Position numbers and translations under genes: made by a program. This document shows, piece after piece, positions 7,788-26,369 of a stretch of 64,000 nucleotides of DNA. The stretch is taken from positions 32,001-96,000 of IMG/VR virus record IMGVR_UViG_3300048861_000178. One strand, 5' to 3'. The notes beneath the pieces are model-generated. The model made no database searches, was not told where the DNA came from, and saw only the letters and a program-made list of their open reading frames with translations. Source of the DNA: a virus (Duplodnaviria > Caudoviricetes). How positions within the stretch are numbered: the first letter of the stretch is position 1; every line of letters begins with the position of its first letter.

Positions 7788-8327
7788 ATGGCCACACCTA
7801 AGCCTTACGGTGGATTGAGTAGCGATCGTTTGACCGCTTTGATTAGCGTCTACAATCCTGGTTTGCATCGGGTTGAGCACGTTGATTTTACGTACGGACA
7901 ACCCCAAGAGTACACAGATGCTCAGGGACGGAATACCCAGGTGACGCTCACCCCGGTGGCAGGGACTGACTACGTGGGGCCGGAGGACATCCATTACAGG
8001 CGTCTACCATTAAGCGTACTGTCGTTGCTGCCTGCGGGCTATGTTAAGCCCGTCGTCATCGAGGCGTTTCCGTTTTCTATTCATGCTTCGTTGGATGCGA
8101 TCAACGAAGCGTTGGGCCTTAACCTGACGCCTGACGAAGTTGAAGACACAGTCTACAGCGAAGAACAAAGCACCTACCAGTTGACTGCGATCGGTGCCAA
8201 TTCCCTAGCGTGGCTGGACTCGACTTATGAGTTCCAGGTTCAATTGCCGGGGGCCTTAATTCCCCTCGATTCGGTGATTGTGCGTCCTACGCTGAGTGGT
8301 CTGGTCTACGTCCAGCCCCTTGTGTAA
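7788..8327 (+). CDS. tail-fibre family A paralog (module only)
   Basis: NTQVTL..YVG...YRRLPL, INEALGLNL..EV, ANSLAW, C-terminal arm LDSVIVRPTLSGLVY. Confidence 0.7.
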   Translation: MATPKPYGGLSSDRLTALISVYNPGLHRVEHVDFTYGQPQEYTDAQGRNTQVTLTPVAGTDYVGPEDIHYRRLPLSVLSLLPAGYVKPVVIEAFPFSIHASLDAINEALGLNLTPDEVEDTVYSEEQSTYQLTAIGANSLAWLDSTYEFQVQLPGALIPLDSVIVRPTLSGLVYVQPLV

Positions 8328-8332
8328 GCAAT

Positions 8333-8352
8333 AAAAATTGGCGCATCCTATG
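8333..8352 (+). promoter_or_regulatory. putative late promoter
   Basis: AAAAATTGGCGCATCCTATG shares GCATCCTATGC with 24569. Confidence 0.6.
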
Positions 8353-8402
8353 CGAATGTGTTTTTTCCTTCGACTCCATTAACCTTCCAGAAGGTATCGA
8401 AA

Positions 8403-8933
8403 ATGGCATGGCAACTTGACTTTACCAAAGACCCCGATCAGGTCCTTCTGGATCAGATCAACCACGACAACGCCAGTGCCCTGACGCTCGCGCTCATCTC
8501 CTTCGGCATTCCGACGGCCATGACGGGCACCAATCCGAACCCGGACACGCAGATCACCGTGTCCTCGCAAGCTGGTTCGGGCTATACGGGTAGCGTGGTG
8601 GTGAACTACAACCGCGTCGACCTGTCGACGATTCCGGGCGCGCGCAGCACCGTCTACGCACTGGGCAATGCAGCGAACATTTCGGATATGATTCCGGAAG
8701 TGAACGCTGCGTACCAGATCAACCTGACGGCGGCTGACTACACGGACGGCCCGCTGCCGACCTTCACCGGCGGCATCCCGAACGAAGAGCACAACTTCCA
8801 GATCGCGGCTACGGCGGATTCGGTCGTCTACGAAGGCGTGATGACCCTCACGCTGCGCTCCAACGACATCCCGCTGTCGAGCGTCATTACGTCGCCGACG
8901 CTCACGGGTCTGGTGTACGTCCAACCGTCCTAA
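8403..8933 (+). CDS. tail-fibre family A paralog (module only)
   Basis: GYTGSVVVNYNRVDL, VNAAYQINLTAAD, arm LSSVITSPTLTGLVY; start placed at ATG 8403. Confidence 0.75.
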   Translation: MAWQLDFTKDPDQVLLDQINHDNASALTLALISFGIPTAMTGTNPNPDTQITVSSQAGSGYTGSVVVNYNRVDLSTIPGARSTVYALGNAANISDMIPEVNAAYQINLTAADYTDGPLPTFTGGIPNEEHNFQIAATADSVVYEGVMTLTLRSNDIPLSSVITSPTLTGLVYVQPS

Positions 8934-8961
8934 GTCGTTTTGTTGGCTCAGACCTAAAACG

Positions 8962-8990
8962 AGAGGGGACCTTCGGGTCCCCTCTTTATT
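8962..8990 (+). terminator. intrinsic terminator
   Basis: AGAGGGGACC-TTCG-GGTCCCCTCT then TTATT. Confidence 0.75.
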
Positions 8991-9005
8991 CGTTAAGGGG
9001 TAAGC

Positions 9006-9836
9006 ATGTCTTTTGTGCCAGTCGCTTCCGACCGGCTGTTGGCACTCATCAATCAGGCAAACCCGCACCTTCCGACACCGGTTACCAAGAGTAACCTGTA
9101 TCTGGGTGGCGCGCGCCTGGACCCGAGTGCTTCGGACGGCAAGTCTTCTATCGTCCCGACCACCGGGGTGTTGGGGACCGTGTATCACGGGTATCAAGAT
9201 TTCAAGTATCAGCGCATTAACCTCACGCAAGCTTACGACTATATTCCGGTCATGCGCAGCGTGGGTGCCGATACGTTGTACAACATGCTCGACATTGTCA
9301 ATGCGTATCTGGGGTTGAACTTCACACAGGACGACGTTGTTGACACCAATGTTGCGCGTGTCGATGCAGGTGCCTCAGTCAACATCAATATCATTGCCAA
9401 GCCAACCTCACTCGGTTATACCGGCTCGATGGTATTGGAATTTCAGCGGATCACGCCCGAGCTGTCTTCAGTGATTCGTAGCGTGAGTTTGGACACGCAA
9501 AACTACGACCAGATCGACCCAACGCTGAACAAGCTCGACATTGGCATGCAGATGTGGAATGTCGATATGTCGCCGTTCTTTAGCACCACTGCCTCAGCCA
9601 ATGCCTTGGCCGTCTCAAGCAACGGGACGTGGGCCAACCTGGCGTTGCTGAAGGCTGCGATTCAGAAACAGTTTGGCTACACGGACTGGCCCACGCCAGC
9701 AGCGAACACGGTGACCGATTACGCGACTTCGAAGTATCCTGGCGCGAACACCAACTTCGAACGGGTCGTGGTTCAGAAAAACGTGGTGGGTGGCACCTAC
9801 GTCGGTGCGGCGCTCTTCCACTATAACCAGAGCTAG
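9006..9836 (+). CDS. tail-fibre family A paralog with tip domain
   Basis: YHG...YQRINL, VNAYLGLNFTQDDV, SLGYTGS; ends LFHYNQS. Confidence 0.75.
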   Translation: MSFVPVASDRLLALINQANPHLPTPVTKSNLYLGGARLDPSASDGKSSIVPTTGVLGTVYHGYQDFKYQRINLTQAYDYIPVMRSVGADTLYNMLDIVNAYLGLNFTQDDVVDTNVARVDAGASVNINIIAKPTSLGYTGSMVLEFQRITPELSSVIRSVSLDTQNYDQIDPTLNKLDIGMQMWNVDMSPFFSTTASANALAVSSNGTWANLALLKAAIQKQFGYTDWPTPAANTVTDYATSKYPGANTNFERVVVQKNVVGGTYVGAALFHYNQS

Positions 9837-9844
9837 GATTAGTC

Positions 9845-11389
9845 ATGGCGCAAACGCTTTATCCCGCACCACTGACTGCGATTCTGACTGCGATTGCGGC
9901 TCAGAACAAGGGCGTGACACTCGTCCCCAGTCAGTACACCTTTGGCAATCCTGTCGTCTATCAGGACCCCCAGGGGATTGAAAACACGTCGTTGCTGATT
10001 ACGGTCAATGACGTGAGCGCGCCATACCAAGGTGCACAAACGGTTTACTATCGCCGCCTGAATCTCGCTGATCTGGCGATCCTCTTGCCGCAGCCGATCT
10101 TCGGCAACGGCTGGACCACGGTCGCGGACTTTTGGGCCGTGCTCAATGCGAACTTCGGTCTGAACTTTGTCGCCGGGGACCTCAACGACAGCACGCCGCT
10201 CGTGATCAATCCGGACGGCTCAGGCTCAGTCACGCTGGTGGCACAAGCGAATTCGCTCGGCTGGATTGGTTCGGTAACATTACCGTTCCAAGCGGGTAAC
10301 TACGATCTAGCTACAGTGGCGACCGGCACAACGCTCTCGGGCCTGTTGTATCCGAATACCGACGCAGGCAAGCCCTTCGGTGAGTTGTATTCGTACTTCC
10401 GCGACATGACGCCGTATCAGGCGCATCTGCAGAACTACAACACCTCGAGCAATGATCTCACGCAATTGACGTTGGATCTGAAAGCACTGACCGGTAACAA
10501 CTGGACCAACGTTGCAGCGGCGCAGTACAGTTTGCAAGGCGCCTCGGTGGTGTACAACGGACTGGTGTCGGATTTTGTGCCGCTGGGTGATTCCATCTGC
10601 ACGCCCAATCCGGCTTATCAGTACGTGCTGATTGTCAAGCTAAACAATTCGTACTCGCTGGGTTACTCGGGCTACATGTTCCTGCATTATGGTCTCATCG
10701 ACCCGTATGCAAACACGGATGTGTTGCCACCTGTGAAGACTGCGATGCTGTTGCGCTTTGACGGCATCAATGGCTCGACCATTTTGCACGACCAGGCTTA
10801 TCCGTCGCGAGTGCTGAACGCCAATGCACCGGCTGCGATCTCCACCGCTCGGTCGCTCTGGGGTGGTTCTTCGTTGGCCGCGTTGGCTGCAGGTGCAAAC
10901 GTGACGACGGCGGACTCCGCTGAGCTGCGTCTCACCTCAGACTTCACCATCGAGTTCGATCAGTATCTGCTCGCGAACAACGCCGTCCAGGTGCTGGCCA
11001 TGAAGGCGCCGGATGACGCCAGTTCGGGTGGTCGCATTCAGGTGTATAGCGACGGGACCTTGGTGGTCTATGCGGATCAGGACGCTATTACGCCGGGTAG
11101 CCAGACACTCACGGTGCCTGCTAACAAGCTAGTGCTCAATCAGTGGCAGCACATCGCGCTGGTCAGCAAAGTAGGCGTGTGGACGCTCTATGTGGATGGT
11201 GTACCGCAAGCCACCGCAACGGCAACCGGCAAGACCTGGGGTAACAACGCAGGGATGCTGTCGATTGGTGGCGACCCCTTCGTGACGACTGCGCCTGCGC
11301 AAGCGTACCTCGAGGAATTCCGCATCAGTAATGTCGCCCGGTATTCGGCCCTCTTCACGCCGATCACCGATCAGTTCTATGTTGATTAA
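9845..11389 (+). CDS. tail-fibre family A paralog with tip domain and LamG/ConA-like domain
   Basis: YQGAQTVYYRRLNL, NSLGWIGS, FLHY; LamG-like DFTIEF...WQHIALV...LYVDG...EEFRISNVARY. Confidence 0.8.
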   Translation: MAQTLYPAPLTAILTAIAAQNKGVTLVPSQYTFGNPVVYQDPQGIENTSLLITVNDVSAPYQGAQTVYYRRLNLADLAILLPQPIFGNGWTTVADFWAVLNANFGLNFVAGDLNDSTPLVINPDGSGSVTLVAQANSLGWIGSVTLPFQAGNYDLATVATGTTLSGLLYPNTDAGKPFGELYSYFRDMTPYQAHLQNYNTSSNDLTQLTLDLKALTGNNWTNVAAAQYSLQGASVVYNGLVSDFVPLGDSICTPNPAYQYVLIVKLNNSYSLGYSGYMFLHYGLIDPYANTDVLPPVKTAMLLRFDGINGSTILHDQAYPSRVLNANAPAAISTARSLWGGSSLAALAAGANVTTADSAELRLTSDFTIEFDQYLLANNAVQVLAMKAPDDASSGGRIQVYSDGTLVVYADQDAITPGSQTLTVPANKLVLNQWQHIALVSKVGVWTLYVDGVPQATATATGKTWGNNAGMLSIGGDPFVTTAPAQAYLEEFRISNVARYSALFTPITDQFYVD

Positions 11390-11404
11390 TCCAAGGAGAG
11401 AGTG

Positions 11405-12277
11405 ATGACAGGCATTACGTCACAGCCGACGACTCTCTCCGGAGAGCAGCTGATTATCCTGCTCAATGAGACGTTCACTCCGAATCCGATCTTCTCGGAT
11501 AAGAACCTGATCTTTGGTACGCCGCAAGCTGCGCCCGATGGTGCAGTGGGTTACGATACCACGGTGGACGTCACAGGGGTGCCAGGCCGAGGCTATTACG
11601 GGGACGCGGTGATTCAATACACCCGTGTCCCGCTCTCCAATCTGGCAGGTCGGGTCTCGCTCGCCTCGCTGGATAACTTTACGCTGGCGAGCATTGCGAC
11701 GCTGATGAATGCGTCGTTGGGGACGTTCCTGCAAGAGGAGGATTTTGTTCCGCAGGACATCACCACACCGCCGCTGCTCGGTTCGAGCACAGTGACGTTG
11801 GTGGCAGCCGATGACTCGCTCGGGTGGAAAGGCTCAGTCGACATCACGATCACGCACGATAAGCCGCACCTGAATGTGGTGATCGCGAGTAATCGACTGA
11901 ACACGATGTTTGACGACTATAGCGCCGCCGTGGTGAACCATGTCCCGTATCGACTCAATGGTCGGGATTACCTATGGAACTACGACTTCACGTCGATGCG
12001 TGATGCGCTGGCGATTAAGTACTACGCGCTCAATCAGAACGTCGGCTACAACGGCATTGCGGACTACGCGACGCTTAGCGCAGCCTGTGCGAAAGTCGGG
12101 ATTCCTTACTTTCCAAACGCCCAGTATGGTCGTACCGGCGCAAGCGATTACGCGACCTCGCAGATTGCTGACAGCAACAAGAATTTTGATCGGGTAGTGA
12201 TTCTCGGTACGATTTGGGGCGGTGTCTTCTATGGCAGTGCCTTGTACTTTCACTACAACGTCCTCGAAAATCGTTAG
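11405..12277 (+). CDS. tail-fibre family A paralog with tip domain
   Basis: GYYGDAVIQYTRVPL, DSLGWKGS, ends LYFHYN; AAGGAG RBS favours ATG 11405. Confidence 0.75.
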   Translation: MTGITSQPTTLSGEQLIILLNETFTPNPIFSDKNLIFGTPQAAPDGAVGYDTTVDVTGVPGRGYYGDAVIQYTRVPLSNLAGRVSLASLDNFTLASIATLMNASLGTFLQEEDFVPQDITTPPLLGSSTVTLVAADDSLGWKGSVDITITHDKPHLNVVIASNRLNTMFDDYSAAVVNHVPYRLNGRDYLWNYDFTSMRDALAIKYYALNQNVGYNGIADYATLSAACAKVGIPYFPNAQYGRTGASDYATSQIADSNKNFDRVVILGTIWGGVFYGSALYFHYNVLENR

Positions 12278-12287
12278 GGCTTGAACC

Positions 12288-13259
12288 ATGTCTCTTTATC
12301 CCAAGCAGTCCATGCAGATGCTGGTTGACCTGATCAACCAAGCGAATCCGTCTCTGCCTGTACCGCTGACCACGACGAATGCGCTCTACGGGACGCCGAC
12401 CGCCGTCACCCCCACGGGTGGTAACGTTCAGAATACGTCGATCAAGGTCACCGCACAGGCTGGGACGAAATACGTGGGTAACACCACGTTGCTGTATCGT
12501 CGGTTGGACTTCGGCATTTTGTTTCGCAATCTGCCGATCGTTATTTACAAGTATTCGCCTAATGCCGGGTCGCCGTACAAGATCTCGGATCTGTTGCCCT
12601 CGATCAACGCCAAGTATGGTCTCAGTCTCACGACGGCCGACGTCGTGGATGGCAGCTTACCCACAGGTAACACCAACGCAGTGGCGGCCATCGGTCTAGC
12701 CGCCGGTACGCGCAATAGCTCGATTACGGTCACTGCGCAAACCAGCAGTCCTGGCTTCATCGGAAGCTTTACGCTTTACTGGGTCCAGGCACCGCAGGAC
12801 ATCGGTTCGATGATTTCGGTAACGAGTCTGGAAAACGCGCGCGTGTTCCCTGGCGCGCGTAACGTGGTCGACAACTCGATCTACGTGCCGGATCTGGACT
12901 TCTACTCGATTGACTGGACGAATGCGCTTAACCAGGCCGCGGCGGCGGCGAGCCAGAGTCTGGCTATAGCCATTGGTTTCTTAACTAGTTACGGCTTGGG
13001 TACTCAAACTGGCGCACCCGCGACGGTCCATAGCTCGTTGCTTGCTTCGATCAATGCAGCGATTACCACGCAGTACAACCTGACCAATCCGGTCTCGACC
13101 CCGTACAGTCTGTATGGCATCAAGTTCACGAACGTGATCCTGCCAAGCGCGACCTTGCCGGAAGCAGACAGCAAGTACTTCAACCGTGCGTTGTATATGG
13201 ATCTGCCTGCGGGAGCTTCGTGGGGTGCGGGCCGTATCATCATGCACTACAACGTTTAA
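12288..13259 (+). CDS. tail-fibre family A paralog with tip domain
   Basis: YVGNTTLLYRRLDF, INAKYGLSLTTADV, SPGFIGS, ends IMHYNV. Confidence 0.75.
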   Translation: MSLYPKQSMQMLVDLINQANPSLPVPLTTTNALYGTPTAVTPTGGNVQNTSIKVTAQAGTKYVGNTTLLYRRLDFGILFRNLPIVIYKYSPNAGSPYKISDLLPSINAKYGLSLTTADVVDGSLPTGNTNAVAAIGLAAGTRNSSITVTAQTSSPGFIGSFTLYWVQAPQDIGSMISVTSLENARVFPGARNVVDNSIYVPDLDFYSIDWTNALNQAAAAASQSLAIAIGFLTSYGLGTQTGAPATVHSSLLASINAAITTQYNLTNPVSTPYSLYGIKFTNVILPSATLPEADSKYFNRALYMDLPAGASWGAGRIIMHYNV

Positions 13260-13268
13260 GGGTGAGAT

Positions 13269-14162
13269 ATGTCGACTTTTCAACTCCCATCCTTGACTGA
13301 TTTGCTGAACGCGATCAATGCGGCCAACGCGACGACGTTTACGGCGTCCGATCTGTCGTTCTCGAATCCGAAAGTGGTGTCGGGAACCTGGCAGGGTCTA
13401 TCAAGCGATCGCAATACCGCTGTGAAAGTGACAGCGGCTTCAGCGAATTATCAAGGCTCCCAGGTGATTCTTTACAATCGCCTGGACTTGGCCCAGCTGG
13501 CCAATCTGTCCGGCGTCACGGATTTGGCCGTGAGCAATCCGCAACACACCTGGGATATCTTGCCGCAGCTGGCTTACTACCTGGGTATTCAGTTCGTGCA
13601 GGGTGATTTGCAGAATCTGCCGATCACGCTCAATGGCGACGGCACGGGTCAGGTGCAGCTCTCGGCTGATCCGAATTCGCTCGGCTGGCAAGGTAGTGTG
13701 ATGCTCAATGTGGTGCCGGGCGGTGTATTGCTCGATGCGGCCGCGGCGACTACGCAACTGCCGGGTATTAACTATCCGGTGGCAGATGCGTCAGCACCGC
13801 CTGCGTCGGCCGTGTACGGCCCGGCCTATCTGTATCCGTACGACTTCACCTCCTGGCAGTCGACGTTCCTGTCGTACGCGCCGGGTGCGATGACGCAGAC
13901 TCAGCTCGATGCTGTGTTGGCGGCCATTCAAGCTGTGGATGTGGGTGCAGGTAAGTCGTTGTGGGTGGACACGGGTGCCAACACGACCTGGAATTTGACG
14001 GGGGCAACCATCGTCTCGAACGGCCTGAATGATGCGGTGAATAACCCAACCAATCCGGCCTACAAGTACGTGATGGCTATTCAGTTGGCGGCGAACCAGA
14101 CGACGCCTTCGGGTCTGCTGTATCTGCACTACAACGATCCGTTCGACCCGAACAACTTCTAA
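13269..14162 (+). CDS. tail-fibre family A paralog with tip domain
   Basis: YQGSQVILYNRLDL, NSLGWQGS, LYLHYND. Confidence 0.75.
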   Translation: MSTFQLPSLTDLLNAINAANATTFTASDLSFSNPKVVSGTWQGLSSDRNTAVKVTAASANYQGSQVILYNRLDLAQLANLSGVTDLAVSNPQHTWDILPQLAYYLGIQFVQGDLQNLPITLNGDGTGQVQLSADPNSLGWQGSVMLNVVPGGVLLDAAAATTQLPGINYPVADASAPPASAVYGPAYLYPYDFTSWQSTFLSYAPGAMTQTQLDAVLAAIQAVDVGAGKSLWVDTGANTTWNLTGATIVSNGLNDAVNNPTNPAYKYVMAIQLAANQTTPSGLLYLHYNDPFDPNNF

Positions 14163-14173
14163 GTCGAGAGCAT

Positions 14174-14199
14174 AGGGGAGTGGGTCACCCCCACTCCCT
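14174..14199 (+). other. intergenic hairpin
   Basis: GGGAGTGG..CCACTCCC stem, preceded by GCATA; no U-tract. Confidence 0.5.
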
Positions 14200-14214
14200 G
14201 AAACGAGGTGTTGA

Positions 14215-15099
14215 ATGTACCCATTTCTTGACACGCAGTTGAACACCTTGCTCGGGTTGATTAACACGTCGAATCCCGGTCTGAAGGTGCCTCTGACGAC
14301 CGCGATGCTACGCTCGTTGGTGCCAACTGCAGTAACGCCTGGGTCGGGACAGATCCAGGACACGAGTCTTAGACTGCTCTCAGTGCCGGGTAACCTCGGC
14401 AAGTATATCGGGACGCAGACGCTGTACTACCGGCGAATTAACTTCGCCAATCTTTTCCGCAGCATGACGTTGACGCTGGATAACTATCTCGGCTCAACCA
14501 CCATGACAGCAGCGCAGTTCTGTACGGCGTTCAATACAAAGTACGGCACGGAATTGGTGCCGACGGACTTTAGCAACCCCTCCTTCACCTCTGGGACGTC
14601 CTACACGCTCACTATGGTGTCGACGTCCCTGTGTTACGAAGGGTCGTTCACCTTCAAGTGGACGCAGGGTGTGCCGTACATGAGCCAGGTCATCGCGAGC
14701 CAGGTATTGACGGGTAAGTTGTATCCGGGTGGCAACACCTTCGGCGGGGGTCGTAAGCCCCAAGCGGATGTGTTGAGCTACGCGCTGGACTGCTCGAAGA
14801 TTCGCACGCAGCTTTTGGCGCTGAGCTCGTCCTCGACGCCGACCCCGTCAAACTGGCTCACTGCAGGTAGTGCGCTGGCAGGTATTCTGGCTTTTCTGCA
14901 ACAGAGCCTGCCAAGTCTGAATCTGAGCGGGCAGGATTCGGCCACCGCGGGTGGCTTAGGCAATCTGTTGGTGTCGCGCTATACGCTGCCTTCGGCGTCA
15001 GTGCCGGGCGCGAATAGCAACAAGTTTGCGTCTGTAGTGACGATCACCGCGGTGGCGGGGTCCTGGTTTCAGGGCACCTTCTATCTGCACTTTAACTAA
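14215..15099 (+). CDS. tail-fibre family A paralog with tip domain
   Basis: YIGTQTLYYRRINF, FNTKYGTEL..D, SLCYEGS, ends YLHFN. Confidence 0.75.
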   Translation: MYPFLDTQLNTLLGLINTSNPGLKVPLTTAMLRSLVPTAVTPGSGQIQDTSLRLLSVPGNLGKYIGTQTLYYRRINFANLFRSMTLTLDNYLGSTTMTAAQFCTAFNTKYGTELVPTDFSNPSFTSGTSYTLTMVSTSLCYEGSFTFKWTQGVPYMSQVIASQVLTGKLYPGGNTFGGGRKPQADVLSYALDCSKIRTQLLALSSSSTPTPSNWLTAGSALAGILAFLQQSLPSLNLSGQDSATAGGLGNLLVSRYTLPSASVPGANSNKFASVVTITAVAGSWFQGTFYLHFN

Positions 15100-15111
15100 A
15101 GGGAGGTCGAA

Positions 15112-15612
15112 GTGAGTCTGTATCAAAATTCGAGCGACGACCTCGCTGCGTTAATCAGTGCTGCCGCTGGCGTGACAGTGACATCCAGTCAGTTTACAGT
15201 AGTGGCGTTAAAGCCCACTACGACCGCTGAGCAGGCTGGAGTGGCGAACGGTAAGAACACCAAGGTTCACGTGTCGATGAACGCCGGAGCACCGCTTCGG
15301 GGTGAAATGACGCTGTACTACGACCGACTCGATTTGGGCGCGTGGGCGAACTTTAGTCCAGTGTTGCTGGTGGCCGCGCCCAATAACGACGTCTCGACAG
15401 TATTGAACACGATTCGTGACCAGTACGGTTTTACACTGACCATGAACGACATCGCTGACGTCTCGACGACAGTCGGAGGCGATGGCAATACCCACGTGGC
15501 GTTGACGGCGCTCGCGAGCTCACCCGGCTACATCGGTAGCTTTGATTGTGTATTCGCGCCGCTCCCGAACATCAGCAATCTGTTCTACTCCAGTACGCTG
15601 AGTGGCTTCTAA
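15112..15612 (+). CDS. tail-fibre family A paralog (module only)
   Basis: GGAGG RBS with GTG start; LYYDRLDL, YGFTL..D, SPGYIGS, ends STLSGF. Confidence 0.7.
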   Translation: MSLYQNSSDDLAALISAAAGVTVTSSQFTVVALKPTTTAEQAGVANGKNTKVHVSMNAGAPLRGEMTLYYDRLDLGAWANFSPVLLVAAPNNDVSTVLNTIRDQYGFTLTMNDIADVSTTVGGDGNTHVALTALASSPGYIGSFDCVFAPLPNISNLFYSSTLSGF

Positions 15613-16045: not shown

Positions 16046-17752
16046 ATGACGCTTCGCGCATTAATCTCGTTTGATCATGTTCCGCTCAATACCAATTTCA
16101 CCTTGCCTGTTGGGACCACGTACGCTTCGAATACCCTGAACACTCAGTACGGTATGCCAGGTGGTGTGATGACTGGCTTAAATGCTGCGGCGGCGGCGAT
16201 TTATACGCCCACCAATGCGATCGCGCTTGGGCCCTCCCCTAATTCTGGCTATAACGCCGGATACGTCGTTTCTCTGGCTGACCTGGGGTGGTTGCAAAAC
16301 GGCGCGACCCAGGGTTGGATGGGTTTTCGCACCTATGCGTCTTCGAGCGGTTCGACGACCGCTTCAGTGGCGGGTTTTCTCACTGCGCTATCGGGATTGA
16401 CCAATTCCGGGTCCGGTATTGCCTCGGTGCTCACGGAAGCTCAGCTGGCACGACCGGGTTACGGGGCGACAGCGTTGCAATATGTCGAAGTCTTTGTCGA
16501 CATGACAGCCCTGACGTATCAGACATATGTCAACGGTATCCAGACGGCTTCCGGTTCACTGCCCTCAGGATGCCAGTATGTCGTGTTTGGGGGTACGTAC
16601 TACACGGCAGCGGGTGGCGGCATGCAGGCCTATCGGGATTTCTACTTCCTCGATGTGGATGCGACTAAGCCCAATGGTCGACTGGGTCCGATTACCAGCA
16701 CGGCGCTCGCACCGAGCGTGAGTACCAGCCAGCTGGCGAACTACGGGAACTTTTCCTTTGCCCTGAATGGCAGCGCTACGGTCTCCAATGCGCAAGCCAA
16801 GTTCGGTACTGCGTCGCTCTACCCGACCCCATCCACCAATGGCGCGGTGGTCATCACAGATGCGCCCCAGTACCGTGCGGTGACTGGCGACATGACCTAC
16901 GAATGCTGGGCCATGTGCACGAATGCGAGTCAGTCAGCGGGTTTTCTGTGTAAGGATTCCGGCGCAGCCCCATGGGCACGATTGCAGTACGTCTCAGGTG
17001 TGTGGCAGTTGCTGACTGACCAGGCCTCGGGTACGCCTGCGCTCAGCGCTACAGGTAACCCAACCGTGAATCAGTGGTTCCATCTGGCCTTGGTGCGGTA
17101 TCAAGGTACCTGGACCATTTACCAGAACGGCGTCGCAATCGGTAGCGTCGCTGGCGGCACCTTTGGTAACAATACAGCCAATCTGGTGCTCGGCAATAAT
17201 AACAATCTGTCCAGCGTGTGGACTGGCTATATTGACGAGTTCCGGGTGTCGAACATCGCACGTTACACGGCGAACTTCACTCCGTCAACGCAGCCATTTG
17301 CAACCGACGCGAACACCATGTTGTTGATGCATTTTGATTCGGTGGTCGGTGCGTCAGTCGCGGACTACAGTAACAATGAGCCGTCGGCATTTCAGACTGC
17401 TTATGGCGCTACCCCGACGATGACACCTCTGGTGCAAAACGGCGCAGACAATCAACCGATTGCGCTGAACTTCGCCCCCAGCGTGCCAGCCGGTCAGAAG
17501 GTTGTCGCGATGCAGTACAAGCTCGCGGCTCAAGTGCCGTTTGCGATGAACTTGCTCGCCTCCATGCAAGAAGGTCAGACCACCAAGACGTTGGCGACGT
17601 ATCAATTCCGTGACACGACCGCTCAGTATGCGCGTGATCTCGCCGGAATTCAGGTGACTGCACCGGACGGCAATGGCTGGACGAGTACCAATATTGCGGC
17701 GACTAACCTCGTGTTGCAACCGCAGTCGACCACAGCGGCGAATACCAACTAA
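16046..17752 (+). CDS. family B lectin-like virion protein with inserted LamG domain
   Basis: MTLRALISFD, YVEVFVD, RDFYFLD..RLGPI, APDGNGWT; LamG insert at about 16760-17341. Confidence 0.75.
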   Translation: MTLRALISFDHVPLNTNFTLPVGTTYASNTLNTQYGMPGGVMTGLNAAAAAIYTPTNAIALGPSPNSGYNAGYVVSLADLGWLQNGATQGWMGFRTYASSSGSTTASVAGFLTALSGLTNSGSGIASVLTEAQLARPGYGATALQYVEVFVDMTALTYQTYVNGIQTASGSLPSGCQYVVFGGTYYTAAGGGMQAYRDFYFLDVDATKPNGRLGPITSTALAPSVSTSQLANYGNFSFALNGSATVSNAQAKFGTASLYPTPSTNGAVVITDAPQYRAVTGDMTYECWAMCTNASQSAGFLCKDSGAAPWARLQYVSGVWQLLTDQASGTPALSATGNPTVNQWFHLALVRYQGTWTIYQNGVAIGSVAGGTFGNNTANLVLGNNNNLSSVWTGYIDEFRVSNIARYTANFTPSTQPFATDANTMLLMHFDSVVGASVADYSNNEPSAFQTAYGATPTMTPLVQNGADNQPIALNFAPSVPAGQKVVAMQYKLAAQVPFAMNLLASMQEGQTTKTLATYQFRDTTAQYARDLAGIQVTAPDGNGWTSTNIAATNLVLQPQSTTAANTN

Positions 17753-17838: not shown

Positions 17839-19515
17839 ATGGCAATCCATGACTTGTGGTCGTTTGATAATGCGCCAGTGGGTACGAGTTTGCTCACCGG
17901 CACGACTGACCTCACCTCAACAACGGGTCCGAGCAACGTTTACAACTACTATACGGGCAATCCCGGTTGCACGTACACCTATACCAGCAGTCCGTTTGCA
18001 GTGGATGCGAACGGCTTTGCTAACTCGACGAATAACTCGAGCGGCAACGGCAGCATGATCTGGTTTAAGCTCGCCCAAGTACTGAATTTCACGACCTCGA
18101 CGAAGTGGGCGATTGGTTTTCGGACCAAGTCCAGTCAGGCAGTAACTGGTTCGACAGCGGGTCGTGTGTTTTGTACCACGGCAGGCTGGGCGACCGCTAT
18201 ATTGCGCACTTGGATCGCCGAAGCCGACCTCGTAGCCCCGGCCAACACGGAGCTGTATGTTGAGCTCGTGGTGGATTCTTCCCTGTTGACCTATTGGCTC
18301 TATATCAACGGCAGTCTCGTGCGCCAGACCGCCTATACGTCGGGGAATTTCCCCTCAACGGGTTATGCTGCTTTTGGCACCGGTAGTACGGTGGGAACTG
18401 CCAACGCCACACGCGGTTATCGGGACTTCTACTTCCTGGATTTTGATAGCACTGACACGACGCGCTTGGGTCCGATCCGTTCCTCGATCGCTTCCCTCTC
18501 GAACATTTCGGGTTCGGAATGGACGCTCAATAGTGCGGCCGACCTGCCGACCGCTTTGAATACCGTGTTGCAAAACCCGCCGATCACCACACCGAGTGCC
18601 TCGGCTCCGGCAGACAATCAGCCGATTACAGCCACCCTCGGGACAAGCCTGGCGGCGAATGTATCCATCATTGCAGTGCAGCCCATGATCTCCTTTATTG
18701 GGGATAGCGCACTGAATACGCTTGATCTGACGCTGACACAAAATGCTCAAGCGCTGGATCTCGGTAAGCTCGCGCCGCCCGTGTCTGCTAACCAGTTTAA
18801 TCAAAAGTGGGCGATTAGTCGTAAAGCTCCCGATGGCGGGATTTGGACCCCTACCAAGCTGGGTCAGACGTCGGCGTCCTTGACACCTGCGGCTCAGCGT
18901 ACTGTTGTCTTGCTGCACATGGAGAATACTACGGACGCCGCCGTATCGCGCACGTGGACACTCAATGGCACTGCAGCTATCTCTACGGCGCAAACAAAGT
19001 TCGGTTCTTCTTCGCTCACTTCGGGCAGCTCAGGCTATCTAAGCGCCCCCGTAGATGCGACCGAGGTCTTTGGTTCAACCTTCACGTTTGAATGCTGGGC
19101 GTATCGTAACTCCGGATTTGGTGATACCAATATCCTGAGCATGTCGACGCAGAACGATTCGACGCACCAAACCGGTATCGGTCAGCAGTCGAATATGGGT
19201 CTGGCGATTTACTTGACCGATGGTAAAGCCTGGCAGTCCTTGGCACCAACCTCGGCATTTCCGCTGAATCAGTGGAATCACGTCGCAGTGGTGTATAACA
19301 ACGGAGTCTACACAGGTTACATCAACGGCGTGGCACAGGGTAGCATTACCTCGGCTTCCACCTTCGGTTTGGCGGGTGCAACCTGTACGATTGGCGGAAT
19401 CCGCTACAACAGCGTTTCGCAGTTCCCTGGCTATCTCGACGAGGTCCGACTCAGTAATGTGGCGCGCTACACCGCTAACTTTACACCCCCGACTGCGGCC
19501 TTCGTGCTGGACTAA
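17839..19515 (+). CDS. family B lectin-like virion protein with C-terminal LamG domain
   Basis: MAIHDLWSFD, YVELVVD, RDFYFLD..RLGPI, APDGGIWT; DEVRLSNVARYTANFTPP. Confidence 0.75.
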   Translation: MAIHDLWSFDNAPVGTSLLTGTTDLTSTTGPSNVYNYYTGNPGCTYTYTSSPFAVDANGFANSTNNSSGNGSMIWFKLAQVLNFTTSTKWAIGFRTKSSQAVTGSTAGRVFCTTAGWATAILRTWIAEADLVAPANTELYVELVVDSSLLTYWLYINGSLVRQTAYTSGNFPSTGYAAFGTGSTVGTANATRGYRDFYFLDFDSTDTTRLGPIRSSIASLSNISGSEWTLNSAADLPTALNTVLQNPPITTPSASAPADNQPITATLGTSLAANVSIIAVQPMISFIGDSALNTLDLTLTQNAQALDLGKLAPPVSANQFNQKWAISRKAPDGGIWTPTKLGQTSASLTPAAQRTVVLLHMENTTDAAVSRTWTLNGTAAISTAQTKFGSSSLTSGSSGYLSAPVDATEVFGSTFTFECWAYRNSGFGDTNILSMSTQNDSTHQTGIGQQSNMGLAIYLTDGKAWQSLAPTSAFPLNQWNHVAVVYNNGVYTGYINGVAQGSITSASTFGLAGATCTIGGIRYNSVSQFPGYLDEVRLSNVARYTANFTPPTAAFVLD

Positions 19516-19595: not shown

Positions 19596-20672
19596 ATGAC
19601 TTTGCGAGCCTTGTGGACGTACGATCACATTGCCAACGCATCCGCTATTACCCTGACGTCACTGGCTGCCTATACGCCTAATAACGCGTACAATCTGCTC
19701 ACGGGTAATCCCGGTACGCCGATTCTACGCGCGGGTACAGCCAACGTGGTGATCAATGCGCTGGTGGCGGGTGCAGCACCTGGCGCGTATCGGGGTGGTG
19801 GTATTGGGTTTGGTAACAGCACCTCGCAGGCCCAGGCGCTGGTGGTCGCGCTTGCGGATGTACCGCTGCTGCAGGGCGGAGTGACCAAAGCGTATATCGG
19901 TTTTCGGACCTGGAGCTCGGTCATTCCGGCGCCGGGTACTTCTTCGGTCTTTGGGGTGGCGTCTTCCGCCACGGCTGTGCCGACTGCGCTGGTGAATGAA
20001 ACCCAACTGGCGCGCGTGGTGAATGTGACGCAGTACGTGGAGGTGATGCTCGACATTGCCAATAACCAGTACTCGGCCTGGGTGGATGGGCTTAAGATTG
20101 TCGATAAGGCGGCGCTTGTCGCAGGCTTTACGTATCTGGTGTTTGGCTCCAATGCGGTGACAACGAACTCCTGTAACTTCTCGTTTCAGGATTTCTACTT
20201 TGTCGACGCCGATGCGACGCTGCCCAATACGCGACTCGGTCCGATCCAGTCGGCTTTGGCAACCATTGCTGCGGTCAGTGCGCCGAACTATACTTCCAGT
20301 GACGCAAAGACGCCGCTGGCGGACTTCACCACTGCGTATAGTGCCGCGCCTGCTGCGACGCCAAACATTACCAATGCGGCGACCAATGATCCTGTCACGG
20401 TGAACTTCACTTCACAAGCCCCTGCTGGGGCAGGCATGATTGCGGTGCAGTACAAGATGGCAGCCAGCGTCACAGCAACTGCGCAGATGTCAGCACAGCT
20501 CAAGCAGGCCTCGACCACCAAGAACTTGCCCACCTACACGTTTAGCGACCTCACGATGGACTTTGGTCGTGATTTGTCGGGCGTGCAGACGACGGACCCG
20601 AGCGGCAATGCTTGGAGCGATGCAGGACTGGCGGCCACTGCGCTGATTGTTCAGCCGGTCTCGCTCACCTAA
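19596..20672 (+). CDS. family B lectin-like virion protein
   Basis: MTLRALWTYD, YVEVMLD, QDFYFVD..RLGPI, DPSGNAWS. Confidence 0.7.
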   Translation: MTLRALWTYDHIANASAITLTSLAAYTPNNAYNLLTGNPGTPILRAGTANVVINALVAGAAPGAYRGGGIGFGNSTSQAQALVVALADVPLLQGGVTKAYIGFRTWSSVIPAPGTSSVFGVASSATAVPTALVNETQLARVVNVTQYVEVMLDIANNQYSAWVDGLKIVDKAALVAGFTYLVFGSNAVTTNSCNFSFQDFYFVDADATLPNTRLGPIQSALATIAAVSAPNYTSSDAKTPLADFTTAYSAAPAATPNITNAATNDPVTVNFTSQAPAGAGMIAVQYKMAASVTATAQMSAQLKQASTTKNLPTYTFSDLTMDFGRDLSGVQTTDPSGNAWSDAGLAATALIVQPVSLT

Positions 20673-20755: not shown

Positions 20756-21805
20756 ATGGCTATTCGAGATTTTTGGGGCTTTGACAATATCCCCCCTTAC
20801 ACGAGCGGTGCCACGGCGCTCAACTACTTACGGCCCGATATTACGGTCTCTAACTATTACCTTAGCTACGGAACCGTGTTGAAGGGTACTGGTAGCTGGG
20901 CGAACTGGCTTGTGTGCACCGGCGGCACTAACCCGTATCCGAACACGAACTACGGGACCTACAATCCGCTCATTTCTGTCCCCTATCAGAACCTCAGCGA
21001 TTTCACCACGACGCGTAGCTTTATGGGGATGCGGTTTCAGATCAATAACAACTCATTCTCTACCCAGGTGCTGTACCTACAGAACACGGCAGGCACCAAA
21101 CAGACGCTGTTGCTCAATACCCAGCTCGCCCTGAACACCTCGCAGTACGTCGAGGTGATGATTGATCGCACTAACACGCAGATTGTGGTATGGGTCGACG
21201 GCGTGCAGGTCTCGAGCACGTTCTTTGACTTCAATGCGTTTGTGTCGGCGGATGGTAATGCGTGGCTGGTATTCGGTTGTAACACTGGTTCTGCGCTTTA
21301 CACCTGGTACATGCGTGATGCGTACTTCCTCGATGACACCCAGGATGCCACGCAATGTAATCGTCTGGGTCCGGTGGATGTGCGCGCTCAAGCGCTCGCT
21401 TCGGTAACTGCACCGAACTGGGTGTCAAGCGACAGTGCAACCGCATTGGCGGATTTGTCGAGTCCCTTTACGACGACCGCTGGCTCACTCACTGCACCGA
21501 CGCTCACGGAACCATCGACGATGGACCCGGTGCAGTTTACGCTTTCCAACGCGAACCTCATCGCAGGCGAGAGCATTCTGGGCGTGAAAGCGGATATCAC
21601 CGGACAGCGCATCGGTGGTTACGCGTACGCGCCTCAGATCTCGATGAAGTGGAATAACCAGACTGTGAACGGCAAGCAAATGAAGTATGCGACCCCGAGC
21701 ACCTGGAACTACAACCAGAATGCTTTCCTGCTGGAAAAAGCGCCTGACGGGACACCCTGGACGCCGCAGGCGGTAGCAGGCGCCGTGGCAATCCTCACCC
21801 CGTAA
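20756..21805 (+). CDS. family B lectin-like virion protein
   Basis: Start moved to MAIRDFWGFD by paralogy; YVEVMID, RDAYFLD..RLGPV, APDGTPWT. Confidence 0.7.
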   Translation: MAIRDFWGFDNIPPYTSGATALNYLRPDITVSNYYLSYGTVLKGTGSWANWLVCTGGTNPYPNTNYGTYNPLISVPYQNLSDFTTTRSFMGMRFQINNNSFSTQVLYLQNTAGTKQTLLLNTQLALNTSQYVEVMIDRTNTQIVVWVDGVQVSSTFFDFNAFVSADGNAWLVFGCNTGSALYTWYMRDAYFLDDTQDATQCNRLGPVDVRAQALASVTAPNWVSSDSATALADLSSPFTTTAGSLTAPTLTEPSTMDPVQFTLSNANLIAGESILGVKADITGQRIGGYAYAPQISMKWNNQTVNGKQMKYATPSTWNYNQNAFLLEKAPDGTPWTPQAVAGAVAILTP

Positions 21806-21820
21806 TCCAAGGGATCGAAC

Positions 21821-22913: not shown

Positions 22914-24542
22914 ATGACGACAACCGTTCGCTATTTTGCCCCGCTCGTCTGGCAGGGTACAACCAGTTACGCGCAAGTCCGTCAGGCCTCGCCCGTAGCG
23001 TGGTCGCAGCAAAGCGTGAGCGCCTATCTGCGTAATGTGCAAGCGGTGCAGTGGTTTCAAAGCCCGACACCGGTGAATCTGCGCAAGGTGAGTGCGCTGC
23101 AATGGGCTCAGGACGCGTCGCTGGTCAACATGCGTCGTGCCGTGGCGTTGCAGTGGACGCAAGACGTGCTCGGCTTGAAACTGCGTAACGCGCAGGCGGT
23201 GACCTGGACGAAATCGTCTACGCGCGGTGTGTTGCGTCAAGCCTCCGCGTTTACCTTGCAGAAGTCTTCCACGCAAGGGGCATTGCGGCAAATCAGTGCG
23301 TTTACCTTGCAAAAGACCACGGTAGCCACCACCAAGGGCGGTCTCACCGGTTTGTGGGCGCTGATCCAGGCAGATGCGAAACAGACTATTTTGCAGTCAC
23401 AGCTTACAGTCAGTGCCCCGGTTGCGGACACCTCGAAGCTGAACTGCAATACGTACGTGACAGTGGCGCCGACCGGTGCATTGTTGCAGCAGTACTCGGG
23501 CACCACCAAGCTCTACTACAATCGCGTCGACATCAATAACGCTTTTCTGGGCGGCACCAATAACACCTGGAAGCTCGGCACGATAGCTTCAGCCACCACC
23601 ATCCGCGCGCTGATCCCCCAGATCAACACGCAGTATGGCTTGACGCTTGATCCGACCGATGTAGTAGACGGTCCGGTTGCAGCAGGGGCGACCAAGTTGC
23701 AGCTGGTGGCCGACCCGAACAGCTACGTGTTTAATCCGGGTACCTCTTTGTACCTGATGAATGCAACGTCGCTGGCGGCGGCCGTGACGGCAGTGAACTT
23801 GGCTGGTTTTGACAATGCAGCAGGTCAAGGCCCGCTGTCTTACCCGAATGTGGTGTTGAGCGACGCACCTTATGCCTACTACCGTCTGAATGAAACCAGC
23901 GGTACGGTGGCGAAGGATAGCTCAGGCAATGCGCGCAATGGGACGTACACCGGCGCACTGACCTTGGGTAACGCCACGCTGCTCACGCATGATACTGCCA
24001 AGTACCCGCAGTTCCCTGGTTCGGCGACTGCCTATGTGGACGTAACGGCGGCAAAGAACTTCTGTGCGGGTTCGCAATGGACGTTCGAAGCCTGGGTGAA
24101 TGTGACCTCGTATTCGACCAAGGGCGGCTACACAGGTTCGGCCAGCGGTCCAGCCATGCTCACTGACGTGGGCGATACGGGCAGTACGTCACCTGCTACG
24201 GGTCTTGAGCTCTCGTTGCTCGCGCTGGGCAACACGCAGCAAGGGTATTACTACTGGCCTGCGGACAACGTTTCGAGCGCAGCCACGGGCACCCCGATGC
24301 CGGTGGTAGGAACGGCCGTGCATATCGTCTTTACCTACAACGCCGGAACGGTGAGTATGTACAAGAATGGTGCCCTGATCCAGAGCTTCACGGGCGCTAC
24401 AGCGGCGACGATTCGTTCGTTCCTGCGGATCGGTGCAGGTGCATGGGTAGGCGGTCCGATGAACGGCATGATTGGTGAGGTGGCGTTGTACACGAAGGCT
24501 CTTTCAGCAGCCCGCATTCAGGTTCACTACAACAGCAATTAA
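22914..24542 (+). CDS. repeat region + family A module + LamG protein
   Basis: 8x17-aa N-terminal repeat; YSGTTKLYYNRVDI, INTQYGLTLDPTDV; LamG AYYRLNE..WTFEAWV..HIVFTY..GEVALY. Confidence 0.8.
   Translation: MTTTVRYFAPLVWQGTTSYAQVRQASPVAWSQQSVSAYLRNVQAVQWFQSPTPVNLRKVSALQWAQDASLVNMRRAVALQWTQDVLGLKLRNAQAVTWTKSSTRGVLRQASAFTLQKSSTQGALRQISAFTLQKTTVATTKGGLTGLWALIQADAKQTILQSQLTVSAPVADTSKLNCNTYVTVAPTGALLQQYSGTTKLYYNRVDINNAFLGGTNNTWKLGTIASATTIRALIPQINTQYGLTLDPTDVVDGPVAAGATKLQLVADPNSYVFNPGTSLYLMNATSLAAAVTAVNLAGFDNAAGQGPLSYPNVVLSDAPYAYYRLNETSGTVAKDSSGNARNGTYTGALTLGNATLLTHDTAKYPQFPGSATAYVDVTAAKNFCAGSQWTFEAWVNVTSYSTKGGYTGSASGPAMLTDVGDTGSTSPATGLELSLLALGNTQQGYYYWPADNVSSAATGTPMPVVGTAVHIVFTYNAGTVSMYKNGALIQSFTGATAATIRSFLRIGAGAWVGGPMNGMIGEVALYTKALSAARIQVHYNSN
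22926..23333 (+). repeat. eight tandem 51-bp / 17-aa repeats
   Basis: VRYFAPLVWQGTTSYAQ, VRQASPVAWSQQSVSAY, LRNVQAVQWFQSPTPVN, LRKVSALQWAQDASLVN, MRRAVALQWTQDVLGLK, LRNAQAVTWTKSSTRGV, LRQASAFTLQKSSTQGA, LRQISAFTLQKTTVATT. Confidence 0.85.
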
Positions 24543-24639: not shown

Positions 24640-25182
24640 ATGGCAAAAATCAACGCATCGTTGTCGGCGTTGGACAACCTGCTCGCGCTCGTCAATGCTG
24701 CTAATACCGGCCAAACGATCACGAACACGCAAGTGACTGCAGGTGCGCCCAGCGTCAAATCCGATACGGGTGACGGTCGTAACACCACGGTGGCACTGAC
24801 GGCTGTCGGTGGCCAAGGCTACACGGGTTCGGTCTCCGTCAACTACACGCGCCGGGGTCTGAACGACTCGGTGCTCAGCCCGGTCGATAGCTACACCGCG
24901 ACCACCGGTACCACGGCAGCTGCGCTCGTGACGGCGCTCGCCGCCCAGCTCGGCCTCGTGGAGTCGGAAGTCCACCTCGAAGATCCGGCTGACCCCGGTG
25001 TGGCGCTGTCGGGCGCACAGAGCGGCAATCAGGCCACGCTCGATCTGGTGGCTAACGCAGGTTCGCTGCTGTATGTGGATGGTTCGCTGCAAGCGATCAC
25101 CATGACCTGGCAGGCTCCGCAGGTCGCGCTGTCCACGGCTGTTGCGACGACGGACCTCACGGGTTTCGACGCCGCCAGCTAA
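24640..25182 (+). CDS. tail-fibre family A paralog (module only)
   Basis: TAAGGA RBS; RNTTVAL..GYTGSVSVNYTR; arm LSTAVATTDLTGFD. Confidence 0.75.
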   Translation: MAKINASLSALDNLLALVNAANTGQTITNTQVTAGAPSVKSDTGDGRNTTVALTAVGGQGYTGSVSVNYTRRGLNDSVLSPVDSYTATTGTTAAALVTALAAQLGLVESEVHLEDPADPGVALSGAQSGNQATLDLVANAGSLLYVDGSLQAITMTWQAPQVALSTAVATTDLTGFDAAS

Positions 25183-25200
25183 GCATTTCAGTGCTGAGGA

Positions 25201-25234
25201 AAAGCGGGGCTTCGGCTCCGCTTTTTTATGCCGT
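25201..25234 (+). terminator. intrinsic terminator followed by TTATGCCG
   Basis: AAAAGCGGGGC-TTCG-GCTCCGCTTTT-TTATGCCG. Confidence 0.8.
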
Positions 25235-25283
25235 CAATTTCCACATGGTCATTTTATGACCTTTCCCTATTCTGGCGACAAGT

Positions 25284-26369
25284 ATGCAAATTGATCCGAC
25301 AAAGAGCGCTATCCAGAACCTGCTCGCGCTTGTCGATGGTTCGAACCCATCAGCACCTAATTTACCCAATGAAGTCACAGTGAGTGGCATCACCACAGGA
25401 AGCTTTGCCAACGGGACTGATACGAAAGTCACTTTGACGGGCACGGGCCCGCAGGGTAATTATGCCAACTTTACCGGTAGCGTTGACGTAACGTATAAAC
25501 GTCTCACCCTGGCGACTGAAGCTGCCAGCCCGACAGGCCCAGTCTCGCTGTCGCTCGGTACCAGTAAAGACGCTGCGCTGGCGACGGTGGCCCAATACTT
25601 TGGTTTTATTCCGACGGAGATCAGTGCACCCAGTTTCACGCCACAGGGTGCAGCGGGCAACCAGACAGTGACCTTGCAGGCCAGTGGTTCCTTGATTTAC
25701 GAGGACGGTTCAACCGACATCACGATTAATTGGACGTCGCCGAAGACGGTACTGCTGACTCACTTCGATGGTGCAGTCACGGATACCTCGGTGCCGGATG
25801 TTGCTTCGGGTGGGTCGATTGCCCTCAGTGGTGGAGCAACACTCACGACCACTACCAAGGTGTTTGGTACGGCGGCCTTCCAGGGTAGTGCCAGCAATCC
25901 AGCCTCGTGCGCGAGTGCTGGAGCGAACAACAAGTACATCATGTCGGGCGACTTCACGTTCGAGTGTTTCTTCATCCCGAACGCTGCCGACCTCTCCGGC
26001 GAGAGTATCCTGTTCTCCGAAGGTACGGGTTCTTATATCGATCTCTTCCACAATACGTGGTACGTGTCGCTTGGAACCACAAATGTGCACTTGATCAATG
26101 GCGTAGCTGCGAACCTGGTCGCTGGTACGACCTACCACGTGGCGCTGACACGTCAAGGCACGACCGTGACAATCTGGGTAAACGGGGTTTCGGTTACTAC
26201 GGCCAGTTCGTCATTGCCGTTTGGTGTGTCGGGCGCAAATATGAACATTGGCAATTACAACTCTAATGGCTACGGCGTGAAGGGCGTGCTGGATGAGGCC
26301 CGAATCTCCAATGTTGCTCGCTACACGGCTGCTTTCACCCCGCCGTCTGCACCGTTCACGTTGGACTAA
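25284..26369 (+). CDS. family A module + LamG domain protein
   Basis: FTGSVDVTYKRLTL, GSLIY; DFTFECF..YHVALTR..DEARISNVARYTAAFTPP. Confidence 0.78.
   Translation: MQIDPTKSAIQNLLALVDGSNPSAPNLPNEVTVSGITTGSFANGTDTKVTLTGTGPQGNYANFTGSVDVTYKRLTLATEAASPTGPVSLSLGTSKDAALATVAQYFGFIPTEISAPSFTPQGAAGNQTVTLQASGSLIYEDGSTDITINWTSPKTVLLTHFDGAVTDTSVPDVASGGSIALSGGATLTTTTKVFGTAAFQGSASNPASCASAGANNKYIMSGDFTFECFFIPNAADLSGESILFSEGTGSYIDLFHNTWYVSLGTTNVHLINGVAANLVAGTTYHVALTRQGTTVTIWVNGVSVTTASSSLPFGVSGANMNIGNYNSNGYGVKGVLDEARISNVARYTAAFTPPSAPFTLD

Follow-up and report, generated by a model that had tools for sequence, protein, structure and literature searches.

The DUF7941 module is specific to chimalliviruses and is built of an N-terminal domain, a linker and a C-terminal domain (Goslar preprint, bioRxiv 10.64898/2026.04.21.720040). 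In phage Goslar such modules form head-to-tail filaments, a 'fibre cloud' (10.64898/2026.04.21.720040), and both the Goslar preprint and the map of phiKZ (PMC13250141) locate DUF7941 proteins at the baseplate periphery. The proteins named are Goslar gp22 and gp23, the fused Goslar gp86, gp92 and gp161, and phiKZ gp126, gp127 and gp143 (10.64898/2026.04.21.720040; PMC13250141). In gp86, gp92 and gp161 carbohydrate-binding domains stand in place of the C-domain (10.64898/2026.04.21.720040), and phiKZ gp127 belongs to the outer baseplate, where it terminates a band made of five gp139 dimers (PMC13250141). In the Goslar model the lectin-type domains are fused to DUF7941, not docked, and a partner lectin family is not described there. 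Here we report a DUF7941 protein that carries an N-terminal array of 17-residue repeats and is encoded directly after five lectin-like genes (family B) in a 64,000-nucleotide stretch of the virus record IMGVR_UViG_3300048861_000178 (positions 32,001 to 96,000 of the 315-kb record; this whole stretch is called the window and, unless a locus is named, coordinates refer to it). The repeats may be a strip on which these lectins are mounted.

Branched receptor-binding protein (RBP) complexes include those of CBA120, where TSP2 and TSP4 carry T4 gp10-like XD domains, and the anchor-branch systems of the Klebsiella phages KP32 and K11; PhiKp24 is reportedly equipped with hyperbranched fibres (Ouyang 2022, cited in PMC13250141). 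The locus in the window resembles such complexes in having different binding heads side by side, a single adjacent adaptor gene, and a conserved attachment part combined with swapped tips. The docking element is different: branched complexes dock through folded domains some 100 aa long or through conserved anchor peptides at the N-terminus of the docked proteins, whereas the candidate sites here are 17-aa motifs that belong to the adaptor itself. Searches of the repeat protein and the B proteins with Pfam and PHROGs detected no gp10-like domain. With the cellulosome scaffoldin the locus would share the concept of a repeated-site scaffold recruiting paralogous carbohydrate-active modules. This is an analogy of logic only: cohesins are immunoglobulin-like and about 150 aa long and dockerins are Ca-binding duplicated segments, compared with units of 17 aa in the window, and neither type of module was recognized by Pfam in B1-B5 or the repeat protein. 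The functionally closest known systems would be the branched RBP complexes and, by logic only, the scaffoldins, both of which use folded docking domains.

The repeat gene (22914..24542, plus strand) encodes a protein of 542 aa (P0001) with the layout, from N- to C-terminus, of repeats, DUF7941 N-domain with its 'arm', and LamG. The repeats occupy aa 2-137 (22917..23324). The DUF7941 N-terminal globular domain and arm (23352..23828) were recognized by PF25613 at aa 147-305 (E 5.6e-19, 69.1 bits with a cutoff of 27, above the Pfam gathering score), the match covering profile positions 12-176 of 276, and the protein also matched phrog_1037 in PHROGs (E 2.4e-18). The full module of N-domain, linker or arm, and C-domain is not present; the DUF7941 C-terminal domain is absent and replaced by a LamG (ConA-like lectin) tip at 24024..24521, matched by PF13385 at aa 371-536 (E 1.8e-20, 74.1 bits with a cutoff of 27.6, likewise above the gathering score). 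An earlier reading made from the sequence only had placed the DUF7941 module, as 'family A', and a LamG domain on the same protein as the repeats, and both profiles agree with this. A search of PDB sequences with the full protein returned weak matches to LamG-type modules only. An N-domain and arm followed by a carbohydrate-binding domain is also the architecture of Goslar gp86, gp92 and gp161. Unlike the described DUF7941 proteins, the window protein has an N-terminal peptide-repeat extension, and none is mentioned in the Goslar preprint or the phiKZ atlas. No further relevant paper mentioning DUF7941 was found in the searchable literature, nor was an adaptor made of peptide repeats found described there for any DUF7941 protein.

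The repeat array consists of eight in-register units, each exactly 17 aa long; the seven spacings are likewise all 17, and the consensus is xxxhRxxxAhxWxQxxx. The BLOSUM62 autocorrelation of the array was 1.92 at lag 17 (z = 21), compared with a maximum of 0.33 and a mean of -0.23 in 5000 shuffles in which the best value over lags 5-39 was taken. Harmonics were present at lags 34 and 51, and no periodicity was found by the same measure in the remaining 405 residues of the protein. Unit positions 4, 7, 10 and 12 are hydrophobic. Among the 73 units of nine orthologues R5 was present in 73 and position 9 was A, P or G in 72, with position 12 being W in 55, L in 12 and M in 6; Arg5 was also found in every unit of the distant clade that has fewer units. 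The window array has six 'W-type' units, with Trp at position 12, followed by a pair of similar 'L-type' units with Leu. It contains 15 K/R compared with 2 D/E, corresponding to a net charge of +13; outside the array the protein is neutral. The eight period-17 units with their R, A and W/L pattern, which had been noticed from the sequence alone, are confirmed by these numbers, with the correction that the coordinates first given (22926-23333) were off by a few codons.

The units are only 30-63% alike at the DNA level and Tandem Repeats Finder reported no DNA-level repeat in the array, indicating that the array is old. A near identity of the last two units in DNA, and with it a recent duplication, had been suggested, and neither part of this suggestion survived. 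The two share 11/17 aa and 32/51 nt, and 7 codons are identical among the 11 shared residues. In every lineage the array ends with such a similar pair (10-13/17 aa), in which F, L or M replaces W, with only 2-7 identical codons among the shared residues, and the pair motif itself differs between lineages. Given that the pair is alike in all lineages while its codons differ, this points to a protein-level constraint on two equivalent sites, and not to recent duplication or gene conversion. The units also have an identity by position: the same unit compared across phages scored 48-78 and most pairs of different units scored 4-30, the exceptions being the adjacent pairs 4/5 and 7/8 (~47).

Judging from sequence comparisons, the repeats match no described family and the protein is a 'module plus lectin' subtype of DUF7941. 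Pfam searches of the repeat region at E <= 10 returned only a chance-level match to PilN, PHROGs gave no match, and an exhaustive HMMER search with the region recovered orthologues only. The marginal HMMER matches P0010 and P0011 (E about 5e-4) were judged to be other repetitive proteins. P0011, a metagenomic protein of 429 aa, has about nine repeats of ~17 aa of the type PRYSQPVNWKGT (HMMER E 5.5e-4 to the repeat region); it shares an R...P/A-V-x-W core with the units, probably by chance or convergence. The units were also considered as mimics of the DUF7941 arm docking on N-domains, an idea rejected by eye since the arm motif (L..VI....L.G) lacks both Arg and Trp and is spaced differently.

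The five family B genes lie directly before the repeat gene, all on the plus strand: B1 (16046..17752), with a lectin head and a beta domain and a LamG inserted; B2 (17839..19515), with a LamG appended at the C-terminus; B3 (19596..20672); B4 (20756..21805); and B5 (P0012; 21821..22903). They are mutual paralogs (16046-22903) and none was found elsewhere in the genome. The likely start of B3 is ATG 19596, not TTG 19590, and that of B4 is ATG 20756, where the alignment begins with MAIRDFW; the program-made TTG starts of the ORFs 19590-20672 and 20612-21805 are probably wrong, and the ATG starts remove an apparent overlap of 60 nt. The repeat gene starts 10 nt past the stop codon of B5 and its Shine-Dalgarno sequence, AAGGGGG, overlaps that stop, so the proposed position immediately downstream of five mutually homologous genes is correct.

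The association between the repeats and family B was examined in nine cassettes from seven phage genomes, with B identities down to about 35-40%. In 9/9 cassettes the repeat-bearing DUF7941 gene lies 3-14 nt after the last B gene, none of the other DUF7941 paralogs in these loci has a repeat extension, and in the genomes with two arrays (L010/L011 and L014) each B array is paired with a repeat gene of its own. Wherever contigs could be matched by length, B genes and repeat genes were located on common contigs, and no repeat gene without an adjacent B gene was found among the cassettes examined, in line with the earlier expectation that repeat genes should be missing from phages without family B. 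In comparative terms the link between repeats and family B is strong. No loci were obtained from a scan of metagenomic contigs, a second scan of viral contigs with the 4-unit proteins as query gave no new lineages, and no family B was found in Ralstonia phage FLC1-1B, which is therefore uninformative on the association.

The unit numbers seen in the family by a wider search were 2, 3, 4, 8 and 9. Eight units accompany five B genes in the window and in L006 and six B genes in Burkholderia phage FLC9, the nearest isolate. Four units accompany three B genes in L009, L012 and the second cassette of L010/L011, and two B genes in the first cassettes of L010/L011 and of L014; the second cassette of L014 has two B genes and three units. 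These counts exclude the 9-unit genes P0009 and P0075 as well as B genes located on contigs of 231 kb and 259 kb. The earlier suggestion that the repeat number tracks the B gene number is thus borne out only as a loose rise over the nine cassettes, the relation not being 1:1 (B/units 2/3, 2/4, 3/4, 5/8 and 6/8), and these pairs also disagree with one unit per B subunit. When the second cassette of L014 is compared with the second cassette of L010, one B subclass fewer is accompanied by exactly one in-register unit fewer. In the B tree, the B1/B3 and B2/B5 duplications are specific to the 8-unit clade, and B4 groups with the 'class I' B of other phages, which adjoins the repeat gene in the 4-unit clade.

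The two-cassette genomes are related 245-kb contigs (L010/L011 5779-15795; L014 7851-16334) in which two cassettes of B array plus repeat gene are consecutive. Summed over both cassettes they have 4-5 B genes and 7-8 units, close to the single cassette of the window, and one of these contigs was binned in a Sulfuriferula metagenome-assembled genome.

Close orthologues of the repeat protein (P0002-P0008, 55-70% identity) have eight units each and can be aligned without indels over the first 300 residues. The repeats and DUF7941 are the constant part among orthologues, which have different LamG versions at the tip, swapped or extended. On this sequence evidence the tip of the repeat-bearing protein is swapped on a constant base of repeats plus DUF7941. 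The FLC9 orthologue, gp310 (L001 12001-15231), has 1076 aa; past its LamG there is a Gly-rich low-complexity stretch of ~300 aa and then a second LamG-like domain, and P0008 (1079 aa, from a 326-kb contig) has the same layout.

Family B was examined by structure prediction and profile comparison. The AlphaFold2 (AF2) model of B5 (mean predicted local distance difference test, pLDDT, 86.9; predicted template modelling score, pTM, 0.86) consists of a concanavalin A (ConA)-like jelly roll at aa 1-220 and a beta domain at aa 221-360. In the VIA search, aa 1-220 matched the lectin domain of the sialidase BT_1020 (Z 14.6, rmsd 3.4, 171 residues aligned), followed in the list by many lectins and carbohydrate-binding modules; these matches concern aa 1-220, with the beta domain being outside the searches. 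Foldseek against the PDB (copy to 2026-04-08) gave generic ConA-like folds only for B5. From the model, family B can be confidently described as a predicted ConA-like lectin head followed by a beta domain. Full-length structural matches of B5 in BFVD were virion proteins of Casjensviridae siphophages (template modelling score, TM, 0.58-0.69), and phrog_2448 was matched by B5 (E 3.9e-13), B1 (1.2e-8), B4 (6.5e-7) and B3 (2.6e-4). ORF34 of Hafnia phage Enc34 matches the same family at E 7e-126 and the B hidden Markov model (HMM) matches Enc34 ORF33-35 at 2e-11 to 6e-7, so by profile comparison family B is homologous to the phrog_2448 virion proteins of Chi-like siphophages. No DUF7941 module was found in the B proteins with Pfam. 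Family B had no match among PDB sequences at E <= 10, and a sequence relation to phiKZ gp139 was therefore not supported. Among the B paralogs the N-terminal domain and the C-terminal one are equally diverged (mean identity 0.30 vs 0.29), which is not what was expected of a specially conserved C-terminal docking domain. The net charges of the B proteins are -4 to -7. Vibrio phage VpV262 has just one B-like gene, a weaker one, and no repeat gene is obvious beside it.

The explanation that we favour, tentatively and at somewhat less than an even chance, is that the repeat strip serves as a multivalent adaptor of basic charge through which the B lectins are mounted on filaments of DUF7941. The 542-aa protein would be a subunit of the DUF7941 fibre cloud at the baseplate periphery of phiKZ-like (Chimalliviridae-type) phages, plugged into the filament network by its DUF7941 N-domain and arm, and its LamG tip would be a glycan-binding head. 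The 136-residue N-terminal extension would form a strongly basic strip made up of individually differentiated strand-turn-strand motifs, eight in number, every motif combining the invariant Arg with a small residue at the turn and another that is aromatic or hydrophobic. The B lectins encoded directly upstream, five proteins that lack an anchor, would be captured by units acting singly or in pairs, and several different sugar-binding heads would in this way be mounted on one fibre subunit. From the repeats, the architecture, the B fold, the linkage, the copy numbers and the constraint on the units we infer a physical binding of B, with its stoichiometry and the bound surface of B. An adaptor would account for a linkage that is both exclusive and duplicated, for unit numbers that vary, for units that are differentiated and end in a constrained pair, and for the charge complementarity. 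The repeats are found on 1/13 DUF7941 genes of the genome and family B is represented only by the five genes before it, the charge contrast is +13 vs -4 to -7, and a terminal pair that is alike while its codons differ fits two equivalent contact sites.

Several observations weigh against an adaptor. The binding of B is so far a proposal, and the conserved gene order could reflect co-assembly or co-expression alone. In FLC9 the sixth B gene was gained without a ninth unit and cassettes with two B genes have three or four units, and perhaps two or three independent evolutionary events underlie the trend in numbers. The C-terminal domain of B is no more conserved than the head and there is no obvious common docking surface. 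The R/W pattern would fit a cation-pi ladder within a self-contained beta structure equally well; the AF2 monomer model of the repeat protein is too poor to discriminate, and repeat proteins of Chi-like phages (see below) have no detectable sequence homology to the units.

The main rival explanation, which we consider unlikely though it deserves serious weight, is that the repeats are a self-contained beta-rich stalk (a hairpin ribbon, two-stranded solenoid or trimeric beta-spiral) that spaces or anchors the DUF7941 subunit at the baseplate periphery, the B genes being neighbours through co-assembly. The AF2 monomer model of the whole 542-aa protein, made with 8 sequences, had a pLDDT of 45.7 and even the LamG fold was poorly modelled; given that this known fold was also poor, nothing about disorder can be read from the low confidence in the repeats. 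DSSP on this poor model gave for each unit a strand of 6-8 residues, a tight turn at positions 8-9 (A/P/G) and a strand of 3 residues, which speaks for a stalk. ESM Atlas hits to aa 1-140 (scores 0.76-0.77, TM <= 0.36) were at chance level. Repeats of 16-17 aa with a small or Pro turn residue resemble the triple beta-spiral repeats of adenovirus and reovirus fibre shafts, and the period of 17, the A/P/G turn and the strand-turn-strand pattern are compatible with such a fold, with Ala, not Gly or Pro, dominating the turn. Triple beta-spiral shafts are trimers built of 15-17-aa repeats that have a Gly or Pro turn and alternating hydrophobic residues. The exact period without indels within the 8-unit clade also speaks for a stalk, as does the possibility that the invariant Arg and the conserved Trp stack as a ladder. 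An anchoring extension is plausible because the phiKZ DUF7941 protein gp127 ends a band of baseplate proteins (PMC13250141). Against a stalk, members with 2-3 units are too short for an autonomous solenoid, a charge of +13 with stacked Arg is unfavourable without a partner, and the units are individually differentiated, not homogeneous. It also leaves unexplained why every B array, duplicated ones included, has its own repeat gene, and no known repeat family was matched in Pfam even at E = 10.

A more specific version of the adaptor, which is a rather doubtful idea at present, takes each differentiated unit or adjacent pair as the address of one lectin paralog, the strip being a genetically programmable socket bar that would carry a defined set of heads on DUF7941 filaments, with the same principle operating in Chi gp36 / YSD1_35 and the HRDY3 repeat proteins. 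Grouped by similarity, the eight units make three pairs and two singles, that is, five sites for five B genes. Enc34 (L016, NC_019524, 33450-39757) has four phrog_2448 genes (ORF33-36) followed by ORF37 (668 aa, phrog_7226), which corresponds to Chi gp36 and YSD1_35. Most of ORF37 consists of short, degenerate repeats; its C-terminal part reaches 1.7 at lag 25, and similar motifs are present N-terminally. Achromobacter phage AchV4 (L022, MW269554, 7995-12936) has three B-like genes (gp25-27), two of which carry the annotation 'virion structural protein', followed by a repeat protein of 578 aa with a lag-25 score of 2.0. The gene order in Casjensviridae, with arrays of 3-4 phrog_2448 paralogs and a short-repeat protein directly after, is the same as in the window; phrog_2448 homologues are also known from Chi and YSD1. 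The repeat proteins themselves differ, in that they have no DUF7941, are 578-668 aa long, have units of about 18-25 aa with another motif, and show no HMM-detectable homology; the unit HMM did not detect the repeats of Enc34 ORF37, and neither ORF37 nor ORF34 had matches among PDB sequences. In Pseudomonas jumbo phage HRDY3 (L023, PQ015379; 2690-6814, 9596-10663) a repeat protein of 1374 aa lies three genes upstream of a B-like gene and contains about six 18-aa repeats of the ISQ.PELILKRE type at aa ~730-855. The Chi-like and HRDY3 repeat proteins may be analogues of the strip, and are taken here as a lead, not as support.

Two further explanations are minor. That the repeats bind a polyanionic host polymer (lipopolysaccharide, capsule or exopolysaccharide) multivalently, Arg contacting acidic groups and Trp stacking on sugars to add avidity to the LamG tip, is improbable. 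The array is rich in R, W and Q, with few acidic residues, the copy number varies as in many cell-wall-binding repeat proteins, and the protein is part of the host-recognition apparatus (10.64898/2026.04.21.720040), all of which would suit this function. Parts contacting the receptor are usually the most variable, whereas here the repeats and DUF7941 are conserved and the LamG is swapped; in addition, the strict linkage to B would be unexplained and Pfam gave no similarity to known carbohydrate- or cell-wall-binding repeats. Equally improbable is a nebulin-like ruler or staple running along a polymer (an acidic DUF7941 filament or a B oligomer) with one unit per subunit and setting length or branching. 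For it, the exact period and the charges of the short DUF7941 paralogs (-9 to -12 vs +13 for the strip) can be cited; against it, the units are, by eye, unlike the DUF7941 arm motif proposed for subunit contacts, and their number follows the B gene number, not the DUF7941 number (about 9-13 in all genomes).

The surroundings of the locus resemble the Chimalliviridae fibre cloud in having many DUF7941 paralogs in one array of a phage with phiKZ-type internal head proteins. There are 12 paralogs in the window and 13 in the 315-kb genome, and the N-terminal repeat extension is present only on the 542-aa protein. Nine paralogs without it are located at 7788..15612 and two repeat-free ones (180 aa; 361 aa with LamG) follow the repeat gene at 24640..26369, all on the plus strand and assigned by Pfam. 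The thirteenth (G000:C1:208846-209295, minus strand, E 2.6e-26) is isolated outside the window, far from the main array. A profile of the 12 window paralogs matched phiKZ gp127 (PDB 9xqd) at E 6.6e-10. The region upstream of the DUF7941 array (860-7394) encodes an internal head protein of phiKZ type (PF12699, 860-2227) as well as a protein for head-tail joining (PF24214/PF24215, 3950-5320), so the fibre genes adjoin head and neck genes. The phiKZ-like setting is based on these matches, the length of the record and the nearest isolate, the jumbo phage FLC9.

If the repeats dock B, this would be a new phage route to mount receptor-binding modules, using short linear motifs in place of folded docking domains. 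It would explain how an anchor-less lectin family reaches the virion, and the fibre cloud newly proposed for the DUF7941 proteins of nucleus-forming jumbo phages would gain a recruiting element. If the one-address-per-lectin version is true, mounting of RBPs through short linear repeats would be widespread and so far undescribed, and if the parallel with Chi-like phages holds, it would provide a function for uncharacterised conserved genes of flagellotropic phages. The idea is directly testable in a cultured relative, Burkholderia phage FLC9, which grows on B. glumae, with its gp310 and gp311-316. The number and identity of the units would then be a handle with which the displayed heads could be read or, in laboratory phages, re-wired.

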